NCBI GenBank assembly: GCA_963711565.1
Contig: CAVQEQ010000001.1
Span: 1,216,001 to 1,280,000, forward strand
DNA length: 64,000 bases
Origin: an uncultured delta proteobacterium
GTDB taxonomy: Bacteria > Desulfobacterota > Binatia > Binatales > Binataceae
Direction of reading: 5' to 3'
The translations under genes were made by a program, and so were the position numbers. The notes below the pieces were generated by a model that saw only the letters and a program-made list of their open reading frames with translations, did no database searches and was not told the origin of the DNA. This document shows, piece after piece, positions 23,051-56,786 of this stretch (positions are counted from its first letter, which is position 1; each line of letters opens with the position of its first letter).

Positions 23051-23197
23051 CTCGGTTCGATCTTCAGACGAGCAATCGTATGTTATGCAGAATCCAAAGC
23101 GGAACCGGGATTCTTCACTACACCAACTTTCGCTCTGAATGACACAGGAAAAAGAACCTGAGAGCAAAAGGGCGTCCTCGCCATTTTGCGATTAGTA

Positions 23198-23257
23198 CTG
23201 GGTGCAGGGGTCACCCCTGCCGAAGGAAGTGTGAAACCCACCGCGGGGTTTCACATT
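23198..23257. repeat. GGGTGCAGGGGTCACCCCTGCC double-hairpin module
   Basis: Close match to 11111-11173; also forms the 3' part of the 18190 and 19796 repeats. Confidence 0.8.
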
Positions 23258-23297
23258 CAATAAAGTGACTTACGTCTCCCCCAAGGCTCATCGCTCG

Positions 23298-30680: not shown

Positions 30681-30772
30681 GGAGAGGTGGCCGAGCCCGG
30701 TTTAAGGCGCACGCCTGGAACGCGTGTAGACTCGAAAGGGTCTCGGGGGTTCGAATCCCCCCCTCTCCGCCA
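30681..30772 (+). tRNA. tRNA-Ser(GGA)
   Basis: GGAGAGG acceptor stem, anticodon stem CACGC-CTGGAAC-GCGTG, long variable arm, GGTTCGAATCC, encoded CCA. Confidence 0.97.
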
Positions 30773-30885
30773 CCCAGTCCGCGATTTTCCTGTTCTCCGC
30801 GGGAAAATCGAAAATGGTCTGCATGTTCGAGCACTTTCTTCCGCCAAAAGGGAACTGGAGAAGCTCAGAATCCACCGTTGTGGCG

Positions 30886-30905
30886 CCGCTCATAGTTGGA
30901 TCTAA
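30886..30905 (+). repeat. Left copy of 20-bp direct repeat
   Basis: CCGCTCATAGTTGGATCTAA versus CCGCTCTTAGTTGGATCTAA at 43908-43927. Confidence 0.8.
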
Positions 30906-31239
30906 ATACCGCAGATGATCGGATCAGCCCTCCGGCCGTGTCAGCCGGACCGATCCTCTGTAGGTCATTAGCACCGCTTACCTTCCGATGTACATAAAAG
31001 AACGGGCCAGCGCATTGAAGCACCAGCCCGCCGCCGACTGGAAAAGGGGGGCAAACCCAGCCAGCGCCCCCCTTCTACCAAATGTTCCGACGAAGCGTCC
31101 ACCGTTTCCCTAAGAGCTTCACTGAGAGTGGCATTCGCACTCGCAAGGCTCCGATGGATGGTGTATCAGGCTCAATGTCTGGGCCGATTCGCAGCTAGAT
31201 CGCAAAGAACGCCATAGGCGATATGCGCCGCCCTGATCC

Positions 31240-31584
31240 TCACTGGCGCGAAAGGACCAGGTACACGTAGCGCTCGGTGCATCCCAGCCGCGCGGCGATC
31301 TCACCGGCGGCGAGCTGCTCGCGGTTTAGTCTCACAATCTGCTCGTTCAGTGGCACCAATCGCTTAGGCAAGGTGACCGAACATTCTCCAAACTCCGCGC
31401 AGACCTTTCGCGCGATCTCAGCGTCACCGATCTTCTCGGCGAATCGCAAGAAGCCTGGCGAGTCAGGGGCTGGCGCGTAAAATCTCCGACCGCCGAATAT
31501 CTCTATCAGGCGGGCAGCGTCAACCTCGCCCAGTCGTTTGATCAGCGCGGCTCGGGAAACAGTACCATCACCATCGATCGACAT
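31240..31584 (-). CDS. Mor/C-family transcription activator
   Basis: LGEVDAARLIEIFGGRRFYAP...VCAEFGECSVTLP...IAARLGCTERYVYLVL; GGAGG RBS. Confidence 0.8.
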   Translation of the reverse strand: MSIDGDGTVSRAALIKRLGEVDAARLIEIFGGRRFYAPAPDSPGFLRFAEKIGDAEIARKVCAEFGECSVTLPKRLVPLNEQIVRLNREQLAAGEIAARLGCTERYVYLVLSRQ

Positions 31585-31608
31585 TCCTTCCTCCTCCCCG
31601 GCCCCTCT

Positions 31609-32628
31609 CTATGATCTGAAGTTCAGCCCGCGCGCTTCGATCTCGGTGGTGAAACCGGCAGAGCGGGACAGCTTATGGCGCGCCGACTGGATCAAGTAAT
31701 TGCCGTCGTAGGTTCCCCAGCCATCGAGCGTCACGATCGCCCCGCCGGTCATCGTCACATTGCCGGGAATTTCCAGCGTCGCCGTCGCCTGGAGCATGTT
31801 GCGCCGATGCAGCTCCGCGGCTGCCTTCAGCGCGGCCTGCTGGCCGTTCTCGCAGCGGCGTATCAACTTGATGGTATCGCCGGTGGGAACGGCCGGTGAA
31901 GCCTCGGCGGTCGCGCTTATCAGCGCCTTGGTGTCGGGGTCGAAATAATTAATCTGCGCCGCCTTATAGATGAGGTGCGTTTTCGCCTTGAAGTTGAAAC
32001 TCAGTACGTCGCCGCGATGCAGGATGCCGGTAGCCGGGCGCTGCTCCAGCGCCGGCCGCGAATAGAATACCATCTGCGTGCCGCGCATCGTAAACTCGTA
32101 GTTGTGTTCTCTCGCGATCCGATGTAGGAACCCAAGGTCCGATTCCTGATTCTGCCGAAGGGCCATGAAACTCACGTCTGGGTTGACGGCCTCACCGCTG
32201 ACCGAGAATCCGTGCGCGGTCGCGATGGTCCGCGCCGCTTGAAGGAGCGTTTGACCATCGTAAGCTGTGGACTTCGGGGTGCGTATCGCGGGCGTGATAT
32301 ATGCCGCGATGCATCGCAGGTGCACTGCATCGGGCGCGCCCTTAAGCTCGACTTCATCGACCTGAAAAGATGGGCACGGCGCCAATCTCTCATTACGGTA
32401 GCCCATCGAGACATCAACCAGATCGCCGCGCTGCGGAAACCACGGCCCCTGCCATCGCTTATCGCGATCCTCAAGCTCGATTTCCAAGTCAGGCGCCGCG
32501 CCGCCGGCGTGCGACGTATAGATGATCGAGAGCACCATCTTTTCGATCGCGCCGGTAATCCCTACGCCTCGATAGCTGACTGTCCAGGCGGGCGCGCGGA
32601 CCGCGTATGTAGTGACGCCTGCCATCAT
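31609..32628 (-). CDS. Contractile tail baseplate hub, P2 gpD / Mu gp44 family
   Basis: LEIELEDRDKRW...FQVDEVE...QNQESDLGFLHRIAREHNY...GNYLIQSARHKLSRSAGFTTEIE. Confidence 0.88.
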   Translation of the reverse strand: MMAGVTTYAVRAPAWTVSYRGVGITGAIEKMVLSIIYTSHAGGAAPDLEIELEDRDKRWQGPWFPQRGDLVDVSMGYRNERLAPCPSFQVDEVELKGAPDAVHLRCIAAYITPAIRTPKSTAYDGQTLLQAARTIATAHGFSVSGEAVNPDVSFMALRQNQESDLGFLHRIAREHNYEFTMRGTQMVFYSRPALEQRPATGILHRGDVLSFNFKAKTHLIYKAAQINYFDPDTKALISATAEASPAVPTGDTIKLIRRCENGQQAALKAAAELHRRNMLQATATLEIPGNVTMTGGAIVTLDGWGTYDGNYLIQSARHKLSRSAGFTTEIEARGLNFRS

Positions 32629-34604
32629 TCAAGATCGGTTCGACTCTTTTCAGCGAGTCGCCGCTCTACCGCTTTCACAAGTTCATAGCGATGCTTTTCA
32701 AACGCCGCCACAACCATTTTCTCAAGCGCCGAAGTATCCGATCCGACTGGAGCATTGATCGTAATCGGGGCGTTGATGATGATTCCGCCGCTAGCGCCAG
32801 GCACGCCCGCGGCCATCGCGCCGCCCGCGCCCGCCGCGACGATAGTCGTGCTCGCGATCGCGGCGGCCGCGGCCGTCCGCCGTATCGCGGCGATCACCGG
32901 CGAAGGCCGGATATGCTCAGCAACCGTTTCCGCAATTGTGATGTGCTCGCCGAGATGGCTCAGCGGGCCGACTTTGGGCGGCGAATGCCCCTCGAAGTAG
33001 CCCAGGATTCCGCTGCCGATTTTCTCGCACGCGGCCTTGATCGAATCCCAATGCTTATAAATCTCGACGCCGATTAGTCCGAACGGCCCCGCGATTCCCA
33101 TCAGCACCGCTTCGCCAACGGTTTTGGCCCAGCCCATCGTCCAGTTGCCGACGCTGGTGAAGATACTCATCACGCCCGACCACAGACCGGAAAAGAAAGA
33201 CTTGATTCCCGACCAATGCTCGTAAATTTCGTAGCCGGCGACCGCGAGTGCAGCCGCGCCGACAACAACCAATCCCATCGGGCTGATCATCGCCCCCAAA
33301 ATCGTTGGGACGGCCTTCAAAATCGTCGGAACATAGCTCAGCGCCTTCATCGCGTTGCCGATACCGATGGTCGCCATGCCGAACGTCGAGAGCGCGGACG
33401 CTGCGCCGCTGAGGCCCACCCCGGCAACCGATAAACCGATAACCAGACCCTTGGTGGCCCACGAATATTTGTCGCTCGCCGCGGTCGCGCCCTGGATCAA
33501 AGTGGTCAGCTCTCCAAATTTGGTCGAAAACCACGGCAGCGCCGGCGACGCCATCGAGTCGTAGAGGTTGTCGAGATTCTGATGCATCTTATCGAGCTGA
33601 TCGGCCGCGTCGCCCGTTGCCGTCGTGAAACCAATGCCCAGCGCGCCAGCCGCACTCGCGCCTCTGCGTGCGGCTGCGGTAACCTTGTCCAGGCTGTCCA
33701 GATATTTGATCAGTCCGCCCGGATCGCCGATGCCCATCTCCTTCAGCGCTTCGATCTTCTCCATCGAGGGCATGGCCGCGAGGTTTTCGCGTAGCTGTGT
33801 CAGTCCGCCGATAATTCCTTTTTGCCAATCGACGCCGCTTTTACCGCTGTCAACCAGATCCTTAATCATCGAGGCGAACCTGATCGCGCCCCGTCCGCCG
33901 CCGCCGAACTGCTGGCTGGCTTCGCCGGCCAGTGCGAGCAACTCCGAAAATGAAGTATGGGTTTCCGCAGCCGTACCGCCCAACTGCCCTACCGCCTGGG
34001 CCAATTGCTGTGTGCTTTCTTTTCCAACGTTGAACTGCGTCGTCATTTTGAAAAATTGATCGCCCGCAGTCTGTGCATCGACGCCGAAATTGGTAGACGC
34101 AGCACCAAACAAGTTCGCCGCCGCCGCACCATCGACGCCGAACCTGGTGAGCATCGCCGCCGAGTCCTCAGCGGCCATGGCTTTGTTCGTATCCTGGAAG
34201 ATCGCGCGCATCCGCGTGAAGCCGGAGACCCACTCCTCGGCCGTGGCGCCCGCATGCGTACCTGAAAAAGCGACGGCATGTTCCTTCAGCTTCGCGAGTT
34301 CTCCACCGGCGAGGCCCGTCATCGCGGCCGTAGTCGCGAGCGATTTCTGCATCGCAAATGCGGGCTCGCTGATCGCGTCGCTCAGCTCGTGCAGATGGTC
34401 CGCGCCGTCCTTCATCAGAGCCGCGTCGAGCGAGATCCGCTCGCCGAACCTGGTCAGACCCTCCCCTGCCGCATCGATCTTGCCGGCAAACTCCTGAACT
34501 TTATCTCCGAGGTTCAGGAATCCGCCGCCGAACGAGCTGAGCTTGTCGCTCAGCTGATCGATCGCCTTGAACTCGACGCCATAGGTGATCATTTTGTCGG
34601 CCAT
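32625..34604 (-). CDS. Phage tail tape measure protein
   Basis: 659 aa, Ala/Gly-rich helical; AIDQLS N-terminus; IYEHWSGIKSFFSGLW and IYKHWDSIK repeats; HSPPKVGPL; IIINAPITINA. Confidence 0.88.
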   Translation of the reverse strand: MADKMITYGVEFKAIDQLSDKLSSFGGGFLNLGDKVQEFAGKIDAAGEGLTRFGERISLDAALMKDGADHLHELSDAISEPAFAMQKSLATTAAMTGLAGGELAKLKEHAVAFSGTHAGATAEEWVSGFTRMRAIFQDTNKAMAAEDSAAMLTRFGVDGAAAANLFGAASTNFGVDAQTAGDQFFKMTTQFNVGKESTQQLAQAVGQLGGTAAETHTSFSELLALAGEASQQFGGGGRGAIRFASMIKDLVDSGKSGVDWQKGIIGGLTQLRENLAAMPSMEKIEALKEMGIGDPGGLIKYLDSLDKVTAAARRGASAAGALGIGFTTATGDAADQLDKMHQNLDNLYDSMASPALPWFSTKFGELTTLIQGATAASDKYSWATKGLVIGLSVAGVGLSGAASALSTFGMATIGIGNAMKALSYVPTILKAVPTILGAMISPMGLVVVGAAALAVAGYEIYEHWSGIKSFFSGLWSGVMSIFTSVGNWTMGWAKTVGEAVLMGIAGPFGLIGVEIYKHWDSIKAACEKIGSGILGYFEGHSPPKVGPLSHLGEHITIAETVAEHIRPSPVIAAIRRTAAAAAIASTTIVAAGAGGAMAAGVPGASGGIIINAPITINAPVGSDTSALEKMVVAAFEKHRYELVKAVERRLAEKSRTDLE

Positions 34605-34617
34605 CGGACTTTGACTC

Positions 34618-34908
34618 CTATCGGATCGCGTCCTTGCGGAACTCTTCGCGCATCGCGTGGAGCTGACGCGCCAACTCCGCGATCTCCTCGTCAGTCGGCA
34701 GACGCGACATCAGCCCATGCATTCCCTCTCGAAACACCTGAGCGTGGACCGCCTCAACTTCCGGCGAAAACTCCATCTCTCCGATCGCCTCGATCGTTCC
34801 GAGGATAAGATTCATCGGCCGGCGAAAGCCCGACTCGACGCGCGCCGCCATCTCGTCCATAACCTCGGCGAGCGGCCCATGATTTTTCTTTTTTCCCGGC
34901 TTCCCCAC
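34618..34908 (-). CDS. Hypothetical protein upstream of the tape measure gene
   Basis: GTG start after GAGG; 96 aa, helical. Confidence 0.55.
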   Translation of the reverse strand: MGKPGKKKNHGPLAEVMDEMAARVESGFRRPMNLILGTIEAIGEMEFSPEVEAVHAQVFREGMHGLMSRLPTDEEIAELARQLHAMREEFRKDAIR

Positions 34909-35142
34909 CCCTCACCTCGTCCTAGCCGTGATTCACGGCCACAGAGCGCGCCGCAAGCGCGGCGATCGCTATTCCTGAGAGTCCTTCAAACAAAGCGCGC
35001 GCGCTTTGCTGGCGGCCCGTGCCGCCCCGTTTCGTCGGCGCGGCGACCTCACACCCGTCGAAGCCGTTAGTAACGGGCACAGCGCCCGTCGCAAGCGCGG
35101 CGCGAGCCATCCGCGCCGCGAGTCTCCCTAAAGAAAATAAGG

Positions 35143-35344
35143 TGCTGGCGGCGCGTGCGACTACGGGAGGAGTTGTCCCGAAGCCGCCAGCCGCCCAAGG
35201 CGATGCGGTGATATGAGTCCGCACGCCGCCAGCGAGTCGAATGTGAGGAAATGCTGGCGGCGCGGGCGACTTTGGAGGAGTAGTCCAAAGTCCATCCGCC
35301 GCCCAAGGCGATGCAGTGACACCTCCGCATGCCGCCAGCGAGTC
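35143..35344 (-). ncRNA. Candidate tandem structured RNA (two ~95-nt units)
   Basis: Direct repeats at 35143-35238 and 35252-35344, each closed by a GCTGGCGGC/GCCGCCAGC stem with a covarying inner hairpin. Confidence 0.6.
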
Positions 35345-35567
35345 TAAAAACAGATGCGCGCGCCGCCGGCGAACCGGAACGTCGGACGGCGCGCTCAGCG
35401 CGCCGCGACCTTTCGACGCGCGCAAGATTGGGATGCCGGCGGGAAGATGAGATGCGCAGCGCCGACGGCATTGCACCATGCGCCACGTATCGCGAGGCGG
35501 AGAACCTACTACTAGAACCCCCCCCGCATCCCGCCGGCAAGCAAATCATTTTTTTGCGGCGTTCCGA

Positions 35568-35975
35568 CTACGGCAGTTCCAGAATGACCAGGCCCGTTTG
35601 CGTATCCGGCGTGCAGCTCGCGCTCGCCGTGATGAAGCTGTACGGACCGCTCGGAACGATCGAATCGTGAACGTCCCAACTCTTCGATGCGCCTGCCGCC
35701 AATAAATAGCCCTGGCCGAACACCGCCGCAGTGCCGCGAAACTGAATGGTCACAGCGCTCGCGCACTGGTTCTGAATCTCCAGATGCTCCACGAATTGAG
35801 GCTGCGAAAGCGACGAATTAACTGAGACGGCGGTCGCGCTGGCCGCGATCGGCGTGTACACGCCAGTCGTCAGCGCAGTCGGATTTGCGAAAGCAAATGC
35901 TTGAGCTGCCGAGAGCAGCATCGCCGCTACTACTGCGAAAACTGTTTTCCTCATCCTCATCCCCATCATCCTCAC
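35568..35975 (-). CDS. Secreted beta-rich hypothetical protein
   Basis: Signal peptide MRKTVFAVVAAMLLSAAQAFA; LEIQNQC...GYLLAAGAS; two Cys. Confidence 0.75.
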   Translation of the reverse strand: MRMMGMRMRKTVFAVVAAMLLSAAQAFAFANPTALTTGVYTPIAASATAVSVNSSLSQPQFVEHLEIQNQCASAVTIQFRGTAAVFGQGYLLAAGASKSWDVHDSIVPSGPYSFITASASCTPDTQTGLVILELP

Positions 35976-36014
35976 TTTATTGCCGCCGATTTTTCTGGCG
36001 GAGTTTTCAGACCG

Positions 36015-36500
36015 TCAAACTTTGCGACCCTCGCGATCGTCGCGTTCCGGGTAGGGCGGCACCATTCGTTCCAGGAGCTGCATGACATAGAGCGCTCCGT
36101 CGAGAAGCCGATCGTACATCTCGCCGTCGTCGCTATTAGTGTCGCAGTCCTTCAGTGCGGAGATGGCTGCGTCTCGAAGTTCGAGATCCGAAGCGCTTTC
36201 CGCAAACTTGGGATCGGCGTCATAGGCGGCCTTGTGCGCGCGATCAACTTCCTGATGCGATAGAGATAGTCCCGGTTTACCCACACTCGCCCGCGCGGTC
36301 TCCCCGCCAGACTGTCGAGCGAGCGCCGCGGCAAATGCGCGACGGCCTATGCCGAAAGACCGCGCTACGGCCAATTCATCTCGCGTCAAGCCGTGGGTAT
36401 TTTCTGATCGCGAGAGGCGCGCGACCCTCGTCGCTAGCTGTTCGGGCGGGATTCCGAAGGTCGCCGCGATCTTCTTTTGGTCCGCGGTAAGAGTACTCAT
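36015..36500 (-). CDS. Protein with two Mu gpI/Z scaffold-like C-terminal motifs
   Basis: AGGAG RBS before ATG 36500 (in-frame upstream ATG at 36611); LTADQKKIAATFGIPPEQL and LTRDELAVARSFGIGRRAF. Confidence 0.6.
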   Translation of the reverse strand: MSTLTADQKKIAATFGIPPEQLATRVARLSRSENTHGLTRDELAVARSFGIGRRAFAAALARQSGGETARASVGKPGLSLSHQEVDRAHKAAYDADPKFAESASDLELRDAAISALKDCDTNSDDGEMYDRLLDGALYVMQLLERMVPPYPERDDREGRKV

Positions 36501-36628
36501 CAAATTCTCCTGATTGCGGCTGCCCCGAGCCGTCCTCGTTTCATGGGCTGTCAGCGGACTGAGGACTCCGTCGTAACAGGTCTCGATCTCATCTGGCCGA
36601 AATTCCCTCATCTCTCAAAATTCCGCGC

Positions 36629-37249
36629 TTACCACTGGCGGTGATGCGTGCCCTCGCCGCGCTCGCGCCGAGCGTCGTTATCCCGTTCGTGCTGAATCGC
36701 CGCGGCTTCCCGTTTTTCGAGCCCTTCGATGTGCGCGTTGGTCAGGATGCCGGGAACCTCTCTGCGCGTGACTTCGCGGTCGCCCAGCTTCACGGAAGAG
36801 ACCCGAATAGCGCTGATCCGATCTCCATCTCGGAAAAACTTCTTGAGCCCGTCGATCTCCTCTGCGGTCCAACTCGCCTGCTGAAATACAGGATGAGTTC
36901 GATACAACTCTTCCTGGAAGCTGGGCGCCTTTTCCGGGATGCTCAGTCGCCGGCAAGCCTCTTCCATCTCGAAGACCTTGCTCCGAAGGGTGTTTAGATC
37001 GGCACCGTTTCGGATCAGATCGTCGATCATCTTTGAGTGCGAAGCCATGTTGCCCACGGCGGCGCGTTCCCGCTCAGAAGTCGGAAACTTCAGCGCCGCG
37101 ATGCGCGCCCGCGCCGCTTTGACGATCTCGATCGGATCGCGCGCTTGTCGGAGCCGCTCAGTTGCTTCATCGCAATCCGTCGCCATCGCCTTGACCAGAG
37201 TTCCGTTCTCCGGAGCCTGAGCCTCGTTGTTCTCTTCCGCCGCCTTCAT
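36629..37249 (-). CDS. Hypothetical protein
   Basis: 206 aa; ATGA-coupled to the gemA-like gene; GAGGTG RBS. Confidence 0.75.
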   Translation of the reverse strand: MKAAEENNEAQAPENGTLVKAMATDCDEATERLRQARDPIEIVKAARARIAALKFPTSERERAAVGNMASHSKMIDDLIRNGADLNTLRSKVFEMEEACRRLSIPEKAPSFQEELYRTHPVFQQASWTAEEIDGLKKFFRDGDRISAIRVSSVKLGDREVTRREVPGILTNAHIEGLEKREAAAIQHERDNDARRERGEGTHHRQW

Positions 37250-38115
37250 AGGTCACCTCTCGTCGAATTTTTATTCCGCGGGCCGCGAACCGCGCCCGGA
37301 GTTTCTGTCTCGTCCGCGTCGGCCTTCAACGCCGAGCGCATGCCTTCTGCGATCGTCCGATCCACTTCCGCGACGCGCCCGACGAGCCAAAACAGCTCGC
37401 CCCGAACCTTCTTAAAGTCCCATTTCAAAAGAGCTTGCCGGGCTCTCTCCCCAAACTCGCGCACCAGGTCCGCGACTTGCGCCGCGATCTGCGCGTCGGC
37501 GAAATTCTGCGCGTCGAGAAGCACCAGGACGTTGCGGATTCCCTCGATCGGAGTCCCGGCTTCACCGACCAGGCGCATCGCGTCGAATACGCCGGCCTTC
37601 ACGATCGCGCTCGCGGGGATCGCGACCGCGGCCGGCTGGTTCTCCGCGATCGGGTGTTTGATCAGCCACTTTTTGCGCCAGCCCTTGAGCGCTTCGATCA
37701 CCTTGTTCGCATCAGTCGCGTCGAGCCACTGAAGCCTCTCGACGCCGGTGATTTTCCGCACGAATTTTTGCAGCCATCGTCCGGTCGAATTGGCCTTGAC
37801 CGCGCCGACGCGCTCCAGCTCATATGCACAAACGAGCAATTTCTTGAGATGCTGCGCGCCCGGAGATTTCGGATCGATGCGAATCCAATCGTCCTCGCGA
37901 GCGCGCGGCGGTGCCGAGTTAAATCCCTTGCGCGCAAATTCGTCGAGCAGCGCGCGTCGCTCCGCCTCTGTCATGTTCGCCGACGAATCGGTGCGCCCTT
38001 TCGTGATACGCTCGATCATCATGCGATACGCTTCATCGTCCAGGCAGAGCTGTTTTTTCGCGAGATGAATCTTCGCGAGTTCAGCCTGTCGGATTTTCTG
38101 CGGCGGCGTTCTCAT
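37246..38115 (-). CDS. gemA: Mu GemA/gp16 (DUF1018) family protein with C-terminal extension
   Basis: LAKIHLAKKQLCLDDEAYRMMIERIT...SSANMTEAER...GVERLQWL...KVIEALKGW. Confidence 0.85.
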   Translation of the reverse strand: MRTPPQKIRQAELAKIHLAKKQLCLDDEAYRMMIERITKGRTDSSANMTEAERRALLDEFARKGFNSAPPRAREDDWIRIDPKSPGAQHLKKLLVCAYELERVGAVKANSTGRWLQKFVRKITGVERLQWLDATDANKVIEALKGWRKKWLIKHPIAENQPAAVAIPASAIVKAGVFDAMRLVGEAGTPIEGIRNVLVLLDAQNFADAQIAAQVADLVREFGERARQALLKWDFKKVRGELFWLVGRVAEVDRTIAEGMRSALKADADETETPGAVRGPRNKNSTRGDL

Positions 38116-38363
38116 CACGGTTCTGAATCCTTGACCTGCTTGATCGTCGCTCCCGTCACTTCCCGCTCCGCCAGCCAAGCCAACACGCGCGCGCGCGAAT
38201 ATCGGACCACTGCTTTCGAGACCTGGAAGTAAGGCGGCCCCGATCCCTCGCGCCGCATACGCTTGAATGTTTCGTCCGCAACCCCTATGAGCCGCGCGCA
38301 CTCTTCCTGGGAAATGATCTCATCATTGAGCGATAGCGCCGGTCTGTTTGTTTCGTCCGACAT
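38115..38363 (-). CDS. AlpA/excisionase-like HTH protein
   Basis: EECARLIGVADETFKRMRREGSGPPYFQVSKAVVRYSRARVLAWL. Confidence 0.85.
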   Translation of the reverse strand: MSDETNRPALSLNDEIISQEECARLIGVADETFKRMRREGSGPPYFQVSKAVVRYSRARVLAWLAEREVTGATIKQVKDSEP

Positions 38364-38891
38364 TTAGCTCTTTGCCGTTTTCCGCGTTCGCGCGGCTACC
38401 CTCGGGCATGTCGTTTCCAGCAGCGCCAATGCGATCGATGCGCGTAGAATCAATTCCCCGCAAAGCTCCGATGATGGGACTTCGTCCTCGCCCACATGCC
38501 ACGTTAAGGCAGCACAACCCTCGATATATCGCGATCCGAGAGCGGTGGTCGGTGCGTTCCCAATCTCATAGAGGTTACGACTACAGTTTTCGTGAACTGA
38601 GAAGACCATTTCTTCTAAGAGCCGGCGCAGCTTGCTAAAAGCGTCGGTGGTATTCTGAGATGCCTTTCCGATCGAAATCGTGATCTGATCGCGCGCTGGG
38701 CACCATTGGTCTATGTGCCGAAAATGCCTCGCCGATCTGAGCACCGGCCATGCCGTCGCCCAAACGTCATCGTATTTGGCGCGAGCGACGATGAACGCTT
38801 GGAGCGCGGACCGCACTTTGCCGATAGTCGCCGGATCTAAAATGCTTTCCGGTTTGAAGAGCGGGGTTGTTTTTTGCTCGGCTTTTTTCAC
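38364..38891 (-). CDS. Hypothetical protein
   Basis: GTGA overlap with the upstream gene; stop abuts the next ATG. Confidence 0.6.
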   Translation of the reverse strand: MKKAEQKTTPLFKPESILDPATIGKVRSALQAFIVARAKYDDVWATAWPVLRSARHFRHIDQWCPARDQITISIGKASQNTTDAFSKLRRLLEEMVFSVHENCSRNLYEIGNAPTTALGSRYIEGCAALTWHVGEDEVPSSELCGELILRASIALALLETTCPRVAARTRKTAKS

Positions 38892-39319
38892 GGCTGTCCT
38901 CCTCTCTGACGTTCCACGAACGCGCCCAATCGAGCGAGCCGTTTGTCGCATGAGACAATTTGTGCCGCGCACTCCGCGCGCAGATCGCGCAGCGCGGAGA
39001 TTTCTAAATTCGGGTCAAGCGTGAGCCCCTTCCTGCCAACCCTCGGAGCAAAAGGTCCGGTGTTGCGGATCAGCGCATAGACGCTGCCATCGCAGCCGCG
39101 CGCATGCTCGGCAACTCTCAGATAACCCGCGCGCGTCAAGTCCTGGAGGAAGCGCTCAGCCGCCTTGCGCCCCGCGATCTCGGCGACTTGAATCAGATCG
39201 CGAATGTGGAACTGCCGAAGGATGCGCATCGCGCGCCACATTCGTTCGCGCGCGGCGCTCGGCGCGCCGGCGAGATTCACGCCGGCGCCGCGTCCACGTT
39301 TATTTTTGACGGTTTCCAT
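38888..39319 (-). CDS. Transposable-phage early winged-helix protein
   Basis: ARERMWRAMRILRQF...LTRAGYLR...YALIRNTGPFAP, a motif set I associate with the gene after MuB in Mu/B3-like phages. Confidence 0.75.
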   Translation of the reverse strand: METVKNKRGRGAGVNLAGAPSAARERMWRAMRILRQFHIRDLIQVAEIAGRKAAERFLQDLTRAGYLRVAEHARGCDGSVYALIRNTGPFAPRVGRKGLTLDPNLEISALRDLRAECAAQIVSCDKRLARLGAFVERQRGGQP

Positions 39320-40059
39320 CAGGCCGCCGCCGCCGCGAGATCAGCGCGCCGGTTGACTGGCGGCGGCGTCGAATCGTCCATCGGATAATCCGCCAGCGCG
39401 ATCTGCTTGAGCGCCCGCCTGCGGCAGAACGCTTCCACCGCCGCCAGCTCCTTGACGAACAGTCCGGCCGATCCGCGCGTCTTTTTGTGAAGCGCCTCGA
39501 TCAGGTCATCGCCGAGCCGCACTTCGGCCAGCTCGGTCGCGAGCAGCCTGCTATCGTCGAGCGTGGAACTCTTAAATTCTACTTCGCGGAGTATCCGCCG
39601 CTCGATTTGCTCACGCCGCTTTATTTTTCCGCGAAATTCCGCGGTACCGCCAATGAGGACAAGCGGAATCGCCGTCATGTCGTGAATGGCGCGCAGAGTC
39701 TCGACGAGATCCTTTTTCTCTACGATCCCGTCGGCTTCATCGACATAAATCGGCCGCGGCAGATCCGTCAGGCCGCGCACGATTGTCTCGTACATCGGCC
39801 GCAGTTCCCGCGATGGCTTTTCGCCCATCTCGCGGCAAATGTCGCTGAGCATCCAGCGCGGATTCCACAAATGAAGTGCCGTCAGAAAGATCGCGCCCTG
39901 CTTCAGAGCCTGATGCGCAGCGATGCAGGTCTTTCCTCTTCCGCTTCCGCTGCTATGAATCAGGATGATGCCCGGTAGCGATGGATCGCGCGCGATCGCC
40001 GCGGCGATGGCACCGATTCCCGCCTTGTAATTACTCGTCGCACAGATTTTTACCCGCAT
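39319..40059 (-). CDS. MuB-like AAA+ transposition ATPase
   Basis: GSGRGKT Walker A, IYVDEAD Walker B, LRAIHDMTAIPLVLIG. Confidence 0.9.
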   Translation of the reverse strand: MRVKICATSNYKAGIGAIAAAIARDPSLPGIILIHSSGSGRGKTCIAAHQALKQGAIFLTALHLWNPRWMLSDICREMGEKPSRELRPMYETIVRGLTDLPRPIYVDEADGIVEKKDLVETLRAIHDMTAIPLVLIGGTAEFRGKIKRREQIERRILREVEFKSSTLDDSRLLATELAEVRLGDDLIEALHKKTRGSAGLFVKELAAVEAFCRRRALKQIALADYPMDDSTPPPVNRRADLAAAAA

Positions 40060-42113
40060 TTTTTGACCTCCTCGGTCCGTTCGTTACTTGAAGCCGGGAC
40101 GCGCTCAGCCCACCGCATCGCGCGAAAGTCGCTCGTCATTTCGTAGCCCAAAGCCCAACTGTCGGGCGTATTTTTGTAATGCGCGAGAAAGCGCTGTTCA
40201 CGCAAAGTCAACGCCCGGTGCTCGCGCCGAATCGCGATCCAGAGCTGATCACATTCGTCTTCGCTCAACTGCAATTCTCGGATTTCACGCCGCCGCTCTA
40301 TTTCCTGTAGCGCGATATTTCCATCGCGCAGTACCTCGTCGCTATGCGGTTCCGGTTCGGCCGGCGCGTCGAGCGCTTGCAGCGCCGCCGCCGCCGCCGC
40401 GATACCCGGTGAGCGATGCGGCAATGCAGTGATTTCAGTTCCGGGCGCGGGAAGCTTAACGGCGTCGCGCGCAGCGCACGATTCGATAATGTCGCGGTAT
40501 GTGGTTTCAGGCCGGTGCTTTCGCTTGAGCGCGCGCAGCTCGTCCATGCCCTCGCGCATCTTCCTGTTCTGATCCTGCTTGGCCGCTATCGCCATCACCT
40601 GCCGGTCGAGGCCGGCGGACTCAGGATTGATCGCGACGCAGATAAACTTCGTGCCGTCGCCGCTGAAGATGATCAGCTTGCCCTGGTCGCGCGTGCGCAC
40701 GTACTGAACGCCCTGTTCGATATACGCTTCGAGTGCGTTGCCCTCGTCCCAATAGAATGCGTTATCGACACGGATACCCTTCTTGCCGACCGTCGCGGTG
40801 CCATCTTCGCCCAGCAGCACGTCGAGCAGCCGCTCGTCGGCCACGCGCCGAACCTGTCCGCGCCGATCCGCCTCGGCAAAAACCTCGTTGGGAGTCCGCC
40901 CGCCGAGCCCCGAATGCTTTTTGTTGCCGTAAACATGCTCCAGCCACTTGTCGAGCAGGTCTTGCAGCTCGGGCGCGGTCAGCTCGATTCGATAGAGCCG
41001 CCGCATATTGCGCCGCGCGCCGCGGCCGGGCGCATAGCCGGCGCGCTCGCGGATTTTCGACGCCTCTTTCACATCGTGGCCGATGTAGCCGGGCAGGTTG
41101 ACGAAAAAAGAGTGGAGCACCGTGCCGATTCCGCGCTCGATGTGTGGTTTTCGCCATCCCGAATAAGCTGGCGTCGCCGGCCACGCGATCCCGAGCCGCG
41201 CGATTCCGCGCTGCGTGCGCGCCGAGACGAACCCGGCGCCGTTGTCGTGCGAAATCTCGTCGGGAACGCCGCGCAGCGAAATCCCTTTGATCACCATCTC
41301 CGCAACCGCGTTAGAAGACTCAACCGGCGCCAGATGGGCGGTAATCACGCGCGAGCAAACGTCGATCTGCCCCATCACGTGCAGCCTGCCGCCCGGCGTC
41401 TCGACCGTGCCGAGCACATAAGAGTCGGCCGGCGTGCCGTCTATCTCCCAAAGCTGATTTACCCGCGTGATATTCGCGTCGGCATCGCCGATCGCGAGCA
41501 TGTGGCGGTTTTTCCAGCCGGCAGGGTCTTCGATCCGCACATACAGCGAATGGTTCTGCTGCTTCCAATCGCGGATGAACTTCTGCACCGCGTCGATGCT
41601 CGGAATCCGATCGTTTGGAAACCGAGCCTCGATTCCTTCGAGCACGAATTGCGCGTTAACCTTCGGGTTGTGCGCGATCTGGGCGATCACGAACTCACGC
41701 ATCAAGGAATTGCGCGCGATGATCGAGTCGCCGCGCCGCTTGCCATAGCCCGGCACCAGGCCGGCAATGCCGGACTTCTCGAATCGGCGCCAAGCCTTTT
41801 GCAGCGTCGGCCATTCGATGCTCTGCCAGAGTTCGCGCGCGTTGGCACTCACTTCGATCTGACCGTGATTAAAGCGCTCGCAGAAATCCTTGCCCGCAGC
41901 GTTCAGCGCCTTGCACGATCGCTTTCTGAACGCACGGAACGCCGCGACGATCTCCGCCATCGCCAGCGCGCGCGCGGCAATCTTCGTCGGAATACCATCG
42001 AGCGGATCGAGAGGAGCGAGCGGCGCGGCAACAACCGGCAGCGTGACAGCGCGCGCGTCGTCCGACAGCGCCGGCCGTTCCACGAGCTGCACGCTGCGCG
42101 CCGCCTCACTCAT
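40050..42113 (-). CDS. MuA-like DDE transposase
   Basis: WEIDGTPAD, ISHDNGAGF, KPHIER catalytic triad; YGNKKHSGLGGRTP; TVGKKGIRVDNAFY. Confidence 0.93.
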   Translation of the reverse strand: MSEAARSVQLVERPALSDDARAVTLPVVAAPLAPLDPLDGIPTKIAARALAMAEIVAAFRAFRKRSCKALNAAGKDFCERFNHGQIEVSANARELWQSIEWPTLQKAWRRFEKSGIAGLVPGYGKRRGDSIIARNSLMREFVIAQIAHNPKVNAQFVLEGIEARFPNDRIPSIDAVQKFIRDWKQQNHSLYVRIEDPAGWKNRHMLAIGDADANITRVNQLWEIDGTPADSYVLGTVETPGGRLHVMGQIDVCSRVITAHLAPVESSNAVAEMVIKGISLRGVPDEISHDNGAGFVSARTQRGIARLGIAWPATPAYSGWRKPHIERGIGTVLHSFFVNLPGYIGHDVKEASKIRERAGYAPGRGARRNMRRLYRIELTAPELQDLLDKWLEHVYGNKKHSGLGGRTPNEVFAEADRRGQVRRVADERLLDVLLGEDGTATVGKKGIRVDNAFYWDEGNALEAYIEQGVQYVRTRDQGKLIIFSGDGTKFICVAINPESAGLDRQVMAIAAKQDQNRKMREGMDELRALKRKHRPETTYRDIIESCAARDAVKLPAPGTEITALPHRSPGIAAAAAALQALDAPAEPEPHSDEVLRDGNIALQEIERRREIRELQLSEDECDQLWIAIRREHRALTLREQRFLAHYKNTPDSWALGYEMTSDFRAMRWAERVPASSNERTEEVKKCG

Positions 42114-42427
42114 ACGGCCGCCTCGCGCGCCGGTTCTTTCAACACCTTCCGCGCTCGCCGTTCAGCGCGGAGCCGTTCGCGCTCGGGCCACAATTCCTCC
42201 GGCGTTCGGCCGATCGCGGCGGCGACTATGCGTTCTGCGATCGGCCAAGGCCGGTCGAAAACATGACTGAGTGTGCTCGGATGCCAGCCGCGAGATTTTG
42301 CTAGAGCTGCGAGAGAAGTGCCGCGCCGGCGAAGTTCAGCTAGAATGGCGAAGCGATCTATTCCGCTTGACGCGGAAACCGCGAGGCGCTTAGATCGCTC
42401 TGCTCGCTTTGGTCGATGCCGTTCCAT
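42110..42427 (-). CDS. ner: Ner/Nlp-family DNA-binding protein
   Basis: ILAELRRRGTSLAALAKSRG...WPIAERIVAAAIGRTPEELWPER. Confidence 0.9.
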   Translation of the reverse strand: MERHRPKRAERSKRLAVSASSGIDRFAILAELRRRGTSLAALAKSRGWHPSTLSHVFDRPWPIAERIVAAAIGRTPEELWPERERLRAERRARKVLKEPAREAAV

Positions 42428-42467
42428 TGGCAGAATATATTCGTCTGAAATCAGGAGATTGTCAACT

Positions 42468-42974
42468 ATGAAGAGTAGACAAGCTCCCTCATCGAAAGAT
42501 CGGGCCGCGCCTTCCGATCCCATGTCCGACCGAATCGAATATTGCTTTCGCGTGGCCGGCGGCGTGCGCGCGGTTTCTAAAGCCACCGATCTGGTTGAAT
42601 CCCTGCTCTACCGTTACCGGAAACCGGGCGCGTCAAGGCGAACCGACGTATTGTCGCTGATCGCCAAGGCGGCCAATGTGAGCGAGGCGTGGCTTCTAAC
42701 CGGCATCGAGACCGATCCATCGAAGAGCACTTCCGCACGGCCGAAATATCATTCCCTGGCGGATTTGCCCTATCGCATGTCGGCTGAATATGAGATGGAC
42801 GCCGCCGCCCGACGTGAGTTGATCTTTGAGCGAGAGGGCGGCGCCGAGTTCAAGGACGCAACCCTTCGAGCGCTCGAAGAAGAGCTGCACCGTCTCAAAG
42901 GAAGGATCGAGGTTTTGGAATCGCAATTGGCCGCCAGCAGACCGCGCGGCGGAAAAAAAGCTGCACGCGCGTAA
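42468..42974 (+). CDS. XRE-family repressor, divergent from ner
   Basis: GGVRAVSKATDL...LSLIAKAANVSEAWLLTG; C-terminal coiled coil; AGGAG RBS. Confidence 0.82.
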   Translation: MKSRQAPSSKDRAAPSDPMSDRIEYCFRVAGGVRAVSKATDLVESLLYRYRKPGASRRTDVLSLIAKAANVSEAWLLTGIETDPSKSTSARPKYHSLADLPYRMSAEYEMDAAARRELIFEREGGAEFKDATLRALEEELHRLKGRIEVLESQLAASRPRGGKKAARA

Positions 42975-42989
42975 AAGAGGGTTCACGAA

Positions 42990-43328
42990 ATGGGGGCAAA
43001 AGCGTTCGCTCGACTATTGGTACTGATCGGCTTTGTCTCAATGGGCTGCTCGCACGGCAGCTTGCCGCACGATCGCCTCAACGGAACCTGGACCAGCGAC
43101 ATTATGACCATCACGATCGATTTCCCCGCCCACAAATATTCGGGCGTTGCGATGGGCGAGCCGTTTTCGCACTACCTGGACCTGGTGAGCGAAAACGCCA
43201 ACGTCGTGGTCTTCAAAGAGAGCGACGCAACCATCGTCTGCCAGATTCAGGACGACGGCAGCATTATGATCACCAAGCAGGGCTCCGAAGGCGGAATCCC
43301 TATGATCCTGCACCGCGCCAAAGACTAA
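42990..43328 (+). CDS. Small lipoprotein (cargo)
   Basis: Lipobox SMGC; LNGTWTS beta-barrel-like sequence. Confidence 0.75.
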   Translation: MGAKAFARLLVLIGFVSMGCSHGSLPHDRLNGTWTSDIMTITIDFPAHKYSGVAMGEPFSHYLDLVSENANVVVFKESDATIVCQIQDDGSIMITKQGSEGGIPMILHRAKD

Positions 43329-43336
43329 CCGGAAAA

Positions 43337-43749
43337 ATCAAAGTTCCCTTCCGAAACTTTGATCATTGTTCGCCTAGGGAACAATGATCCCGAACCCCGC
43401 CAGAATACCGGCCCGGCATTTTGATTTTCGCGATCACAGTCGTCCTCGACGACTATGATTTTAGCCGCGCCAAGGCGCGCCTAGACCAGGCGTTCGCGTA
43501 TGTCGCGGACGACGGCATGCGAAATCAAAGTCGTGCTCGACGATTTTGATCTTTCCGAGATCAAACTCGCGGACGACGAGTTTGATCGGCCGGCCCCTTT
43601 TCAAGATCGCTAGAGACGATCTTGAAATCACCCTCGCGCTCGACGAGGGTGATTTCCTCCGGTTACGTCGCAGGCTCATGTCGTAGGCGACGACATGATA
43701 AGTGTCGTGGCCCCGCGACACTTCCATCATGTTCCCGAAGGGAACATGA
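43337..43749 (+). repeat. Array of ~13 hairpins, mostly 27-nt ATCA-N19-TGAT units
   Basis: Units start at 43337, 43362, 43399, 43433, 43524, 43560, 43600 and 43627; shorter hairpins at 43462, 43491, 43676, 43700 and 43727. Confidence 0.9.
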
Positions 43750-43907
43750 GAAGTCATAAGCCCCACTAATTTATCGAGCCGCGCAGACGATCCGGTTTTC
43801 AGGGTTGTGAGCGCTCATTGGCCCTTCGCGACGAGGCGCGGGCGCTTTTCGGTCAAAAGTGCCCTAACTATCCGATTTTGCTAGCGAATCATATCAAATG
43901 GAAAAAA

Positions 43908-43927
43908 CCGCTCTTAGTTGGATCTAA
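43908..43927 (+). repeat. Right copy of 20-bp direct repeat
   Basis: CCGCTCTTAGTTGGATCTAA; part of the imperfect palindrome TAGTTGGA-TCTAAT-TCCTAACTA. Confidence 0.8.
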
Positions 43928-44510
43928 TTCCTAACTAGGGATGCGTTAGCGCGACACGGCGCGTCGTGGCGCTATCAGTTTCCAGACTGGCCCGATTAGA
44001 CGAATCCTACTCCGAACTTAGCCCCTGCCCCACGGCTTTGCGATGAGCGCTCGCGTCAGAAAACCCCGTCCAGACGCGGGTTTCGATGCGTCCGTCGTCC
44101 CATGATGTCCCCCCCAGTCCCACGAAATCCCGCGAATTGCCTCGGAAGAGTTTAGATCCAACCATGAGCGGTGTCACACCACCGTTACCAGGCGATTTAC
44201 TTTGGATTCTCTCCTTCGAGAACAGAGCCGGTGCTCTTCGCATCACTGTCCGCCAAAAACGTCTTCGCCAGGACATCGCCTTCAAGCGAGGGAAATCCAT
44301 ACGAGGCTTCTTGAGTCCGCCCGACCTGGGATTCGGTAATCGCCGTGCAGCTTGAAGCGGCCCGTCTGTGGCGAATTCCAATTCATGCGGCAATTGGGGT
44401 CTGAAACAATCCGTTTGCAGTGTTGCCGCCAGCGATATGAGTGAAGGTTTGCGATTGGAGGAGGAACTGCGCCGTTGCGTTGAGCCGGCGTGGCTCCGGA
44501 GCTGCTGCGT

Positions 44511-47300
44511 TTACCGCTCTTTCAGTTCGGCCAAGAAGACGGCCGACCTGCCAACCTCCAGGAATTCCTTAGCATCGAGGGTATCGAAAAGCTGGATAGT
44601 CTTGGCCACGAGGCCGGTCCATCCAGTCTGATGGCTTGCGCCGAGCCCGGCGCCGTTGTCGCCGTGGAAGTACTCGTAGAACAGAATATAGTCGCGCCAA
44701 TGCGGGTCGGACTGAAATTTCTCGCTGCCCCCGTACACAGGACGACGGCCATCTTTGTCACGCAGAAAGGTAGCGCCAAGCCTACGGGTTATCTCGTGGC
44801 TCACTTGAAAAAGATTCATTAGTTGGCCGGAACCAGTAGGGCATTCGATCTTAAAGTTGTCGCCGTAATAGAGATAGAACTGCAATAGTGCCCGAATAAC
44901 TATGATATTCACCGGAAACCACACTGGGCCTCGCCAGTTTGAGTTACCGCCAAACATGCCGGTGTTCGACTCCGCCGGCAAGTAGTCTACGCGATACTCC
45001 CGGTCACCGACGTTCAGGATATAGGGATGATGCTCGTGAAACTTCGATAGAGAACGAATGCCGGTAGGACCCAGAAATTCGTTCTCATCGAGCACTCTAG
45101 AAAGGATTCGGCGCAAACGCTCGGGACCAACCAAAGCTATGATGCCGCGCTCGTAGATTCCGAAATGCCCGGGCCCGGTAGGATGAATGTAATTCCATAG
45201 CTCGGGCATCCGCTGGCGCCGTCTATCCAAGAGAGTCATCGCCGACGGCATCCGTTCGCGTTGCCATCGCTCGACGACAGTGGTTGCGCAGAGCGGCAGC
45301 AGCCCTACCATCGATCGCACCTTGAGCCGTTTGGCGCTGCCGTCCGGGAGTCGCAAGAGATCGTAGTAGAAGCCGTCTTCCTCGTCCCACATCCCGTCGT
45401 CGCCGGGACGGTTCATAGCTGTAGCGATGTAAAGGAAGTGCTCGAGGAACTTGACCACCATATCTTCGGAGGTGTGGTCGTAGGCAAGGAGTTCTATCGC
45501 CAGTTCTGCCATGTTTTGGCTGTACAGCGCCATCCATGCGGTGCCGTCGGCCTGCTCGAGGCTGCCTCCAGTGGGCAAAGGTGCGCTCCGATCGAAAATC
45601 CCGATATTGTCGAGACCCAGGAAACCACCTTCGAAAACATTCTTGCCGAACCGGTCCTTGCGATTGATCCACCAAGTGAAATTCAAGAGGAGCTTTTCAA
45701 AACACCACTTGAGGAAATCGATATCAGTTTCGGCCCCCAGGGCCTGCTCCGTGCGATGCAGGAATAGAGTCGCCCAGGCATGGACCGGCGGGTTAACATC
45801 GCTGAAGTTCCACTCGTAGGCGGGAATCTGGCCGTTGGGGTGCATATATAACCCCTTGAGCATGAGACGTATCTGCTGACGGGCGAACTCCGGGTCCACG
45901 GTCGAAAGCGCGACGGTATGAAAGGCGAGGTCCCAAGCCGCATACCATGGATACTCCCATTTGTCGGGCATCGAGATGACGTCGTCGTTGAGCATGTGGT
46001 ACCACTCCTGGTTGCGGGAGTGCCGGATTCCGTGTTTCAACGGATTGGCGCGATGTTCGTCCAACCACTTATCCGCGTCCAGGTAGTAGAACTGCTTAGT
46101 CCACAGCATTCCAGCGAGCGCTTGACGCATCACATTGGCCGCGTCCGGGGACGCCGCAGCCGGGATCACCGACCGGTAGAACTCGTCGGCCTCGTCCAGG
46201 CGGGCTGCAAAGATCTCATCAAAATTCTTCCCGAACGAAAAAGCATCTTTCCCGCCGCCCTTTGACTGTTCCCCGAGCGCTTGACCAGTCAAGCGTAATC
46301 GCGCCGTTGCCGATTGCCCAGAGTTTATCGTGAATCGGTAGCGCGCCGCGGCTTTGGTCCCGCGCAGGTCCGGATTCACCGTTGGTTTCCCATTCGTCAC
46401 GAAGTCGTTGATGCCGTCTTTCACATAGGGGCAGGCGTTGGGATATTCGGGAAAGAGGCGCTGGTTGTTGGTCTCGTTCTCGGTAAAGAGAAGCGGCACC
46501 TCACCTTCGCAATACAGATGGTACTTTCCGAGTTCGCGATGCTCAGCGGCTATGGCTGTGCTACCAGACGGAGCTTCGATCCACTTGAGAGTCGGTCGCT
46601 CGGCGGGTCTAGAAATCCATGATGACCAGTCATTGCGGAACCAGAGAGTCGGCAACAAATACAGTGGCGCCGGTTCGGGTCCCCGGTTCCACACCGTTAT
46701 CCTTATTAGAATGTCGTCGGGGGCGGCCTTGGCATATTCTACAAAAATGTCGAAATAACGGTCGCCGTCAAAGATTCCCGTGTCCAGAAGCTCATACTCT
46801 GGGTCGTTGCGTGTGCGGCGCGCATTGACTTTTATCAGGTCGCCGTAAGGATAGGCCGCTTGGGGATACTTGTAGAGGTACTTCATGTACGAGTGTGTCG
46901 GCGTACTGTCAAGGTAGAAGTAGTACTCTTTCACGTCCTCGCCATGGTTTCCCTCGCTGTTCGTGAGTCCGAAGAGCCGCTCCTTTAAGATAGGGTCCTT
47001 GCCGTTCCATAGAGCTAGTGCAAAGCACAGCGCTTGCTTGTCGTCGGAGAGACCTGCCAGGCCGTCCTCGCCCCATCGGTAGGCACGCGAGCGGGCCTGA
47101 TCATGGCTGAAGTAGTTCCAAGCGTCGCCCGTGTCGCTATAGTCTTCGCGTACGGTGCCCCACTGGCGCTCGCTAAGGTAAGGACCCCACCGCTTCCACG
47201 GCGTTTGGTGAATGCGCTCCTGGTAGAGACGTTCTCGCTCGGCGGGCATGTTGGTCTCGCTCCTCAGGATCCGGTTTTGCTTAGGTGTCGCGTGCGCCAA
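44511..47300 (-). CDS. GH63/MGH1-like glycoside hydrolase
   Basis: WGPYLSERQWGTVREDYS, MPDKWEYPWYAAWDLAFH, WRGPVW, GASHQTGWT; start may be downstream (MPAERER). Confidence 0.92.
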   Translation of the reverse strand: MAHATPKQNRILRSETNMPAERERLYQERIHQTPWKRWGPYLSERQWGTVREDYSDTGDAWNYFSHDQARSRAYRWGEDGLAGLSDDKQALCFALALWNGKDPILKERLFGLTNSEGNHGEDVKEYYFYLDSTPTHSYMKYLYKYPQAAYPYGDLIKVNARRTRNDPEYELLDTGIFDGDRYFDIFVEYAKAAPDDILIRITVWNRGPEPAPLYLLPTLWFRNDWSSWISRPAERPTLKWIEAPSGSTAIAAEHRELGKYHLYCEGEVPLLFTENETNNQRLFPEYPNACPYVKDGINDFVTNGKPTVNPDLRGTKAAARYRFTINSGQSATARLRLTGQALGEQSKGGGKDAFSFGKNFDEIFAARLDEADEFYRSVIPAAASPDAANVMRQALAGMLWTKQFYYLDADKWLDEHRANPLKHGIRHSRNQEWYHMLNDDVISMPDKWEYPWYAAWDLAFHTVALSTVDPEFARQQIRLMLKGLYMHPNGQIPAYEWNFSDVNPPVHAWATLFLHRTEQALGAETDIDFLKWCFEKLLLNFTWWINRKDRFGKNVFEGGFLGLDNIGIFDRSAPLPTGGSLEQADGTAWMALYSQNMAELAIELLAYDHTSEDMVVKFLEHFLYIATAMNRPGDDGMWDEEDGFYYDLLRLPDGSAKRLKVRSMVGLLPLCATTVVERWQRERMPSAMTLLDRRRQRMPELWNYIHPTGPGHFGIYERGIIALVGPERLRRILSRVLDENEFLGPTGIRSLSKFHEHHPYILNVGDREYRVDYLPAESNTGMFGGNSNWRGPVWFPVNIIVIRALLQFYLYYGDNFKIECPTGSGQLMNLFQVSHEITRRLGATFLRDKDGRRPVYGGSEKFQSDPHWRDYILFYEYFHGDNGAGLGASHQTGWTGLVAKTIQLFDTLDAKEFLEVGRSAVFLAELKER

Positions 47301-47323
47301 CTCTATGGAGACGAACTAGGTCG

Positions 47324-50527: not shown

Positions 50528-50536
50528 TGGCTAGCC

Positions 50537-51733: not shown

Positions 51734-51740
51734 CGGGTTC

Positions 51741-53359: not shown

Positions 53360-53727
53360 CCAGATGATCCAGGCAGGACATCAGGACAACCAGTGCGAGG
53401 GGGCAAGGAGCAGTAGGCCGGAATTTCTTTTTTGGCTTTCAAAGCTCGATTCCTGCCATTCACCAATCTCAGTGTCAAGTCGCGACCTCCGTGACGATCG
53501 CGGCAGGCTCCGGGATTCGCGGGTTATCAAAGTTCGAGCCGTTCGACCGCCCGGCGCACGCTCACTCGTGTGCCGACCAGAAACTCGGGCGCACGGCAGA
53601 GACACAGGTGGCCGCATCGGCCGGTCCATAGGAACGGATCCATTTTTTCGCGTCCGCGTCGTTGTAATTGCCCGGCGTTGGAGCGCAGAGTGCGCGAAGC
53701 AGAGTTGAATGCCGAGTTGAAAACAAA

Positions 53728-56700: not shown

Positions 56701-56786
56701 TTGCGATGCTCGCGTCGTTCGCGTATCAAAAGTTTTTCGCGGCCGGCAACAATCAGAAAGAATCAAAAGATGAAACGCCTCAATAA
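53728..56786 (+). pseudogene. DUF2339-like large membrane protein with multiple frameshifts
   Basis: NWEQFMGVKGFAWIGGLALFLGVAFFVKYSF; C-terminal KLFFHDLAQLGQLYRIGAFIG; fragments spread over all + frames. Confidence 0.8.

Follow-up and report, generated by a model that had tools for sequence, protein, structure and literature searches.

CRISPR arrays are recognised by constant repeats, unique spacers of regular length and an adjacent cas gene, and REPs by one arm sequence in many genomic copies together with RAYT transposases. The aba element of BstA is described in PMC8585504 as DNA-based, cognate to one protein variant and active in trans at high copy. This single element measures 63 bp, contains direct repeats and overlaps a gene whose product is KilA-N-like; it is borne by a prophage and suppresses in cis or in trans (Owen et al. 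2021, PMC8585504). In phage lambda the ori iterons lie inside gene O, and iterons on a plasmid are required to inhibit lambda replication; according to the same account, inhibition by oop-ori also needs oop RNA, and titration of O is discussed (PMC3349717).

Within the 64,000-nt stretch of DNA analysed here (the window), a non-coding array of palindromes occupies positions 43337..43751 and comprises 11 units in one 27-bp frame, a 28-bp variant and one even-centred motif (Table 1). Each unit is built from a 7-bp outer arm, a 3-bp core (TCG or TTC) and a 7-nt centre, followed by the mirror image, and the spacers range from overlap to 36 nt. Like CRISPR and TIGR arrays, the locus is a row of units some of which resemble foreign sequences, but it belongs to neither class, as it has no constant repeat with unique spacers and its period is irregular. 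A first interpretation made from the letters alone (the sequence-only reading) had likewise set CRISPR aside, and this judgement holds: the arms differ between units, the spacers are irregular, and no Cas or Nop-domain family was found among the 55 ORFs scanned against Pfam and PHROG, several of which have no family at all and could include a remote member. The array resembles aba, as far as that system is described in PMC8585504, in being short DNA that may be tied to KilA-N-like genes and is borne by an integrated element. It differs in that aba is carried by the element that encodes its protein, whereas here about 12 different palindromes stand without a cognate gene in the element or the genome; co-encoding of the aba kind was not observed, and none of the KilA-N, ORF6N, Bro-N, DUF1016_N or methyltransferase-N families has a match in the genome that holds the window (G000, 95% complete). 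The lambda iterons, in the account of PMC3349717, are comparable as binding sites within the gene of their binding protein whose extra copies on another replicon inhibit the phage, but they are near-identical tandem sites for one protein, while the array presents many types, mostly once each.

The pairing of the units is far above what the genome offers elsewhere. Within 415 nt there are ten units in which 9 or more of 12 positions pair, compared to a maximum of 4 in any of 1,946 sampled genome windows; 88% of aligned cells are paired against 61% in shuffles, and double changes number 29 against 9.5, a level reached in 0 of 500 shuffles. Every frame of 43329-43765 contains at least 4 stops, and no conserved open frame was found there. 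The rest of the element holds no similar palindrome. Four sequencing runs of a single study, possibly on the source sample, yielded short-read contigs with the same array. The seven 27-nt units listed by the sequence-only reading (units 1, 2, 4 and 6 to 9) and the degenerate unit 3 are all in place, and its consensus pattern does fit five units, of which three have perfectly complementary variable triplets while one contains a G-T and one an A-C pair. What it had taken for five shorter hairpins resolves differently: units 5, 10 and 12 belong to the same 27-nt frame, in unit 11 the centre is longer by one base, and the remaining one is a different, even-centred motif. Its view that conservation concerns structure and not sequence is only half correct, since distant elements have arm types in common.

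Table 1. Features of the Mu-like element and its palindrome array (positions in the window unless another locus is named)
Feature	Position	Strand	Remarks
Host tRNA-Ser(GGA)	30681..30772	+	106 bp ahead of element
Target-site duplication, left copy	30872..30878	+	7 bp
21-nt end repeat, tail-gene end	30885..30905		likely transposase site
Tape-measure-like, tail protein and late activator genes	31240..34604	-	phrog_28, phrog_52, phrog_836
GemA-domain protein	37246..38301	-	domain match
MuB-like ATPase	39319..40059	-	AAA_22, phrog_296
Mu-type DDE transposase	40050..42113	-	rve, Mu-transpos_C, phrog_310
Ner-like regulator	42110..42586	-	HTH_35
Repressor-like ORF	42273..42974	+	PHROG repressor families; true start probably near 42522
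112-aa protein, likely lipoprotein	42990..43328	+	signal-like N-terminus, invariant Cys20
Unit 1	43337..43363		CAAAG-TTC type; 2/16 mismatches to in-gene palindrome of L687 (methyltransferase-N module)
Unit 2	43362..43388		CATTG-TTC type; 2/16 mismatches to in-gene palindrome of L659
Unit 3	43399..43425		degenerate
Unit 4	43433..43459		CACAG-TCG type; best in-gene match in pool 6/16 mismatches
Even-centred hairpin around CCAAGGCGCG	43462..43483		recurs in arrays of G003, G034 (three times) and G061
Unit 5	43496..43522		GTATG-TCG type; common to G034 and G061
Unit 6	43524..43550		CAAAG/CAAAA-TCG type; best in-gene match 6/16 mismatches
Unit 7	43560..43586		CAAAC-TCG type; outer arm also in G006 array
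Unit 8	43600..43626		TCAAGA-T type; in 7/7 non-redundant arrays; 3/16 mismatches to ORF6N in-gene palindrome of L203
Unit 9	43627..43653		CACCC-TCG type; head to tail with unit 8; without close in-gene match
Unit 10	43674..43700		CATG-TCG type
Unit 11	43700..43723		AAGTG-TCG type, 8-nt centre; centre 7 nt in G003 and one short-read contig
Unit 12	43725..43751		CATG-TTC type; 2/16 mismatches to in-gene palindrome of L654
21-nt end repeat, inner copy at repressor end	43907..43927		likely transposase site
21-nt end repeat, terminal copy	44152..44172		likely transposase site
Target-site duplication, right copy	44179..44185	+	7 bp
tRNA-adjacent element sites	window 30681-30879; L015 14880-15037; L022 10162-10253; L024 9737-9826; L025 2375-2470

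The array is carried near the repressor end, as had been proposed, of a reduced Mu-like element of 13.3 kb (30879..44178) that was assigned to this type by its DDE transposase, ATPase, ner, repressor, TG...CA ends and target duplication. It starts 8 nt past the stop codon of the lipoprotein-like gene and may be transcribed; its end lies some 155 bp short of the inner end repeat. One homologue of the 112-aa lipoprotein-like protein carries the label Candidatus Binatus sp. Phage Mu duplicates 5 bp of its target; a 7-bp duplication was seen in two elements, the present one and that of G003 (L015, near 1186 and 14880). The 7-bp sequence is single-copy in empty-site short-read contigs, and one contig joins the element end to other DNA. 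No capsid, portal or terminase family was found in 30879..44178 by a Pfam/PHROG scan of its ORFs, no viral relative of the transposase was found in viral contigs, and an Atlas search with the 206-aa protein of the element was uninformative. This element, with tail genes but no head genes found, may be of a satellite type rather than a decayed prophage, because it can be aligned with G003 over most of its length and with G034 and G061 in part. Five of the eight array-bearing Mu-like elements adjoin a tRNA-Ser (GGA in three, CGA in one) or a tRNA-Sec gene. The same element lies 106 bp (G000) and 65 bp (G003) from the same tRNA in opposite orientations, and therefore a target preference is suggested.

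Across the genus, 13 Mu-type transposase matches were found in 11 of 47 genomes; 12 of these loci were examined, and the one in G018 counts only in the tally of 13. Arrays of 2 to 12 units are present at eight of the 12 loci (two each in G000 and G003, one each in G006, G027, G034 and G061), contrary to the concern that related elements might lack any such array. Their carriers belong to two transposase groups, and the two transposases of G000 have no BLASTP match to each other. The arrays of G003, G034 and G061 sit right behind the lipoprotein gene, like the one described here. Those of G034 and G061 give no BLASTN alignment to it at E 1e-10, while the neighbouring gene is 90% identical. The TCAAGA-T type spans both transposase groups, and the type of unit 12 is the final unit in all four large arrays. 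In G016, G028 and G063, each covered over 16-20 kb that include ner, no array could be found, and the same holds for the 5-kb contig of G019 and for the DNA that follows this lipoprotein gene in L634. A scan for tandem TGTCG-N7-CGACA yielded no new diverse array among 122 genome loci (10 of 64 parts scanned) and 117 viral loci, and none outside the genus among the loci listed.

REPs and BIMEs, which are likewise clustered short palindromes, would be the most obvious host-derived class, and a host repeat family here shares the TTC-N7-GAA core with the array. The difference is that units of the array type cluster only in the two Mu-like elements of the genome, and that the element has no recognised Y1 transposase. 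The units are not a common host-wide REP: TCA-N19-TGA with at least 8 of 10 pairs occurs 18 times, nine of them in the two Mu-like arrays and the rest as scattered singles. The view that the array is a multivalent feature specific to Mu-like elements is thus supported. The host family with the shared core is a C-rich/G-rich, REP-like one, and a separate host repeat with several genome copies lies at 23196-23273 of the window. In the tandem scan of other genomes, at least the match at L251 arose from inverted REPs beside a Y1 transposase.

Single matches to the unit pattern in viral contigs fall in genes, namely those encoding ORF6N, KilA-N, Bro-N/ANT and an N-terminal module fused to methyltransferases (methyltransferase-N), and they do so in different reading frames. 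With the pattern ATCA-N3-TCG-N7-CGA-N3-TGAT that the sequence-only reading had put forward, complementary triplets were present in 9 of 99 distinct viral matches, where 1.4 would be expected. A first tandem-pattern scan of viral contigs returned 7 matches, all coding or chance, and a TCAAGAT scan returned 102 loci, mostly chance matches in coding sequence; L071 and L110 alone were informative, and the ORF6N gene of L110 has an in-gene palindrome with a second copy just upstream. ORF6N, methyltransferase-N and Bro-N families were then picked by protein alone. A 27-nt palindrome was present in 27 of 29 ORF6N loci, in most cases at codon 51-55 of the domain hit; the other two loci are truncated hits. 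The methyltransferase-N module is frequently joined to Dam, MT-A70 or another methyltransferase, and its anchor motif could be placed in 74 of 82 loci, of which 61 are distinct. Among these 61, 59 reach 7 or more of 10 pairs and 46 reach 8 or more, a few rows having taken an off-site palindrome, and 88% of the half-sites have a TTC, TTG or TTT core. Bro-N genes showed the palindrome in 21 of 22 loci, with 8 loci of an even-centred subgroup set aside; this case rests on fixed position and a shared centre, because control windows reach similar pair counts. The subgroup set aside, related to Bro-N, comprises L502, L503, L505-L508, L510 and L512 and has even-centred in-gene palindromes.

Since the in-gene palindromes occupy a fixed codon yet at least two reading frames, it is the DNA that is kept at these sites, not the peptide. 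In the methyltransferase-N module the palindrome encodes a loop of low confidence in the predicted structure, and PDB searches by sequence and by fold returned no relative of this putative DNA-binding module. Extra copies of the own type within 10 kb of methyltransferase-N genes occur at 2 of 45 loci compared to 53 of 1,774 cross pairs; there is no excess and therefore no support for each protein having operators of its own. Single cases were also found by DNA pattern in a KilA-N gene (L166), in YhcG genes (L238, L276) and in genes for GG.RKS-type proteins (L587, L475), and the palindrome of the GGNRKS-type ORF of L475, from a genome of the host's family, is one base per arm from an array type. 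YhcG/DUF1016 and ORF6N genes with two or three tandem palindromes inside or just before them were observed at L238, L276, L249, L185 and L204. In 9 of 13 replication-initiator-like ORFs tested, the same 17-bp core occurs in tandem inside the gene, and other palindromes appear, in our reading, to flank -35-like boxes in the way of repressor operators. Detached copies exist as well, and they are of foreign types: 17 of 18 related prophage loci have two palindromes of this kind separated by roughly 45 nt, and the pair is intergenic, between head-tail genes, in the four loci with gene maps. The pairs at L131 (1198-1269), L158 (1143-1224) and 15 related loci are of methyltransferase-N type and amount to a two-unit version of the array. 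In the complete provirus G710 its own gene holds a different palindrome, and the complete G709 is without such a gene. Two family queries against annotated phage records remained without a match, and in a literature search at abstract level, mostly open-access, no published account of in-gene palindromes in these families or of such an array was found.

The array units have the build of the in-gene class, being odd-centred with arms of about 10 bp and a 7-nt centre, and they share its arms. Among 43 distinct array units, 15 lie at most 2 of 16 arm mismatches from an in-gene palindrome, compared to 2 of 791 for host palindromes outside the REP class, 2 of 84 for those that share the core and 1 of 74 for REP-like palindromes; three spurious units, L186 (from G018) and three circular loci were left out. 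The match becomes weaker when the outer arms are shuffled (p about 0.007, with units that are not independent). In this window, 3 of 11 units are within 2 mismatches (units 1, 2 and 12), units 8 and 10 are at 3, and the others at 4 to 6. The match is weaker for the TCG-core units, which here stand 3 to 6 mismatches away. A half-site profile of ORF6N and Bro-N separates array units from host palindromes weakly, 16% scoring above the 95th percentile of the control. The array is detached from any gene of the in-gene families, spans types of several of them and rides on a Mu-like element.

The explanation that we favour, with moderate confidence, is that the array may be a panel of duplex docking sites for many foreign dimeric proteins, serving as decoys or as self-tags like aba. 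Each foreign protein would bind its cognate palindrome as a symmetric dimer, and members of one family would read different arms, so that two arms would change together without a hairpin; the covarying arms would be explained because each dimer reads a symmetric site. Template switching may help to equalise the arms, as it can in other inverted repeats (PMC8604942, PMC5941160). During replicative transposition the copy number of the element would rise, which would allow titration of the proteins or let the element pass as "self". In favour of docking sites are the shared build, some arm types that agree almost letter for letter, retention at the DNA level, the lack of an overall strand bias and the lack of a cognate gene nearby; against them stand the lack of extra own-type copies near the genes, the small share of close matches among the units of this window, the PDB and structure results for the methyltransferase-N module, the G-T lean of the outer stems, a position right behind a stop codon where the array may be transcribed, and a single copy per lysogen, which would be a weak sponge.

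The same covariation could arise if the units were fixed-size DNA hairpins or cruciforms read by one shared factor, the array being a multivalent substrate or decoy whose arms differ mainly as a protection against deletion between identical repeats. The near-perfect pairing and the many double changes suit this explanation, as do the same build in unrelated protein families, the free variation of arms among close methyltransferase-N homologues, the lack of extra own-type copies near the genes, and the pieces that the G003 array has lost relative to this one. It leaves unaccounted for that the same arm types are found in arrays with no DNA-level alignment and that array arms are closer to foreign in-gene arms than their shuffled versions are, and we consider it unlikely. 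A structured 3' end of the lysogen repressor-lipoprotein transcript, sequestering as an RNA sponge those foreign proteins that recognise a hairpin within their own mRNA, would remove the copy-number problem, and the array does sit 8 nt past the lipoprotein stop and right behind this gene in three relatives. It also folds well (z = -8.7 on the + strand), although the - strand does slightly better (z = -9.0) and in 4 of 4 large arrays the antisense strand folds at least as well. The earlier statement that G-T pairs favour the + strand is not borne out, as this strand has 5 G-T against 9 A-C pairs, and the G-T:A-C ratio is 12:11 over the 43 distinct units and 2:6, 7:3 and 16:20 in ORF6N, Bro-N and methyltransferase-N genes. 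Analysed by position on the repressor strand, outer-stem positions 4-7 do lean towards G-T (8:1), but positions 9-11 lean the opposite way (3:10). The centres of ORF6N palindromes are found in both orientations on the sense strand, the G006 array lies inside its element away from the repressor operon, Rfam gave one chance match (E 0.59, 19 of 100 bits), and a promoter and terminator scan stayed at chance level. A + strand RNA is accordingly unsupported and we regard this alternative as quite unlikely; of the earlier proposal of a protein sponge, the sponge survives, more likely as DNA than as RNA.

Captured scraps of foreign genes, without function or kept as silent recombination cassettes and made symmetric through template switching, would be consistent with the tandem 27-nt insertions in or beside ORF6N genes (L185, L204, L249) and with the rapid remodelling of arrays between relatives, as well as with half-deleted units in G003. 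We judge this very improbable given that arms are kept while centres and spacers diverge: within recurring unit types the arms are 84% identical, a value partly built in because types are defined by arms and drawn from units that are not independent, and the centres are at background identity (50% vs 46%). In addition, arrays are present in eight elements of two transposase groups, with no recipient gene in the element or genome. The suggestion of the sequence-only reading that a multiplied packaging site or transposition enhancer outcompetes a helper phage draws on the position of 7 of 8 arrays near the repressor end and on the lack of head genes. It fits poorly with units that differ from the end repeats of the element and match foreign coding palindromes instead, and with three ner-bearing relatives (G016, G028, G063) and L634 in which no array was found, so that it appears to us the most doubtful of these alternatives.

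A wider form of the docking-site explanation, which we put forward tentatively as possible, is that mobile elements tag their own DNA-binding-protein genes with palindromes and that Mu-like elements might hold an updatable key ring of such foreign tags, with which they would escape, titrate or enlist regulators, methyltransferases and defence proteins from many other elements at once. If true, this would be a new form of conflict between mobile elements, fought with a non-coding, multi-specific panel of binding-site mimics, and the coding palindromes of phage domains that are very common yet little understood (ORF6N, Bro-N, KilA-N and methyltransferase-N) would be functional sites. The array offers ready substrates and natural specificity variants for binding tests of these families.

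Further features of the window lie outside the element. At 21263-22660, in a stretch of lower GC beside an unassigned 262-aa ORF, there is a restriction-modification-type methyltransferase (Eco57I, TaqI_C). The DUF2339 and DUF3999 genes at 55185-58768 appear split over several frames, possibly through indel errors or decay. The 9.3 kb at 44226-53560, which include genes for glycoside hydrolase and RND efflux, have a copy at 98.8% on contig C2; this copy is followed by an IS21-type element and the second Mu-like element of G000.
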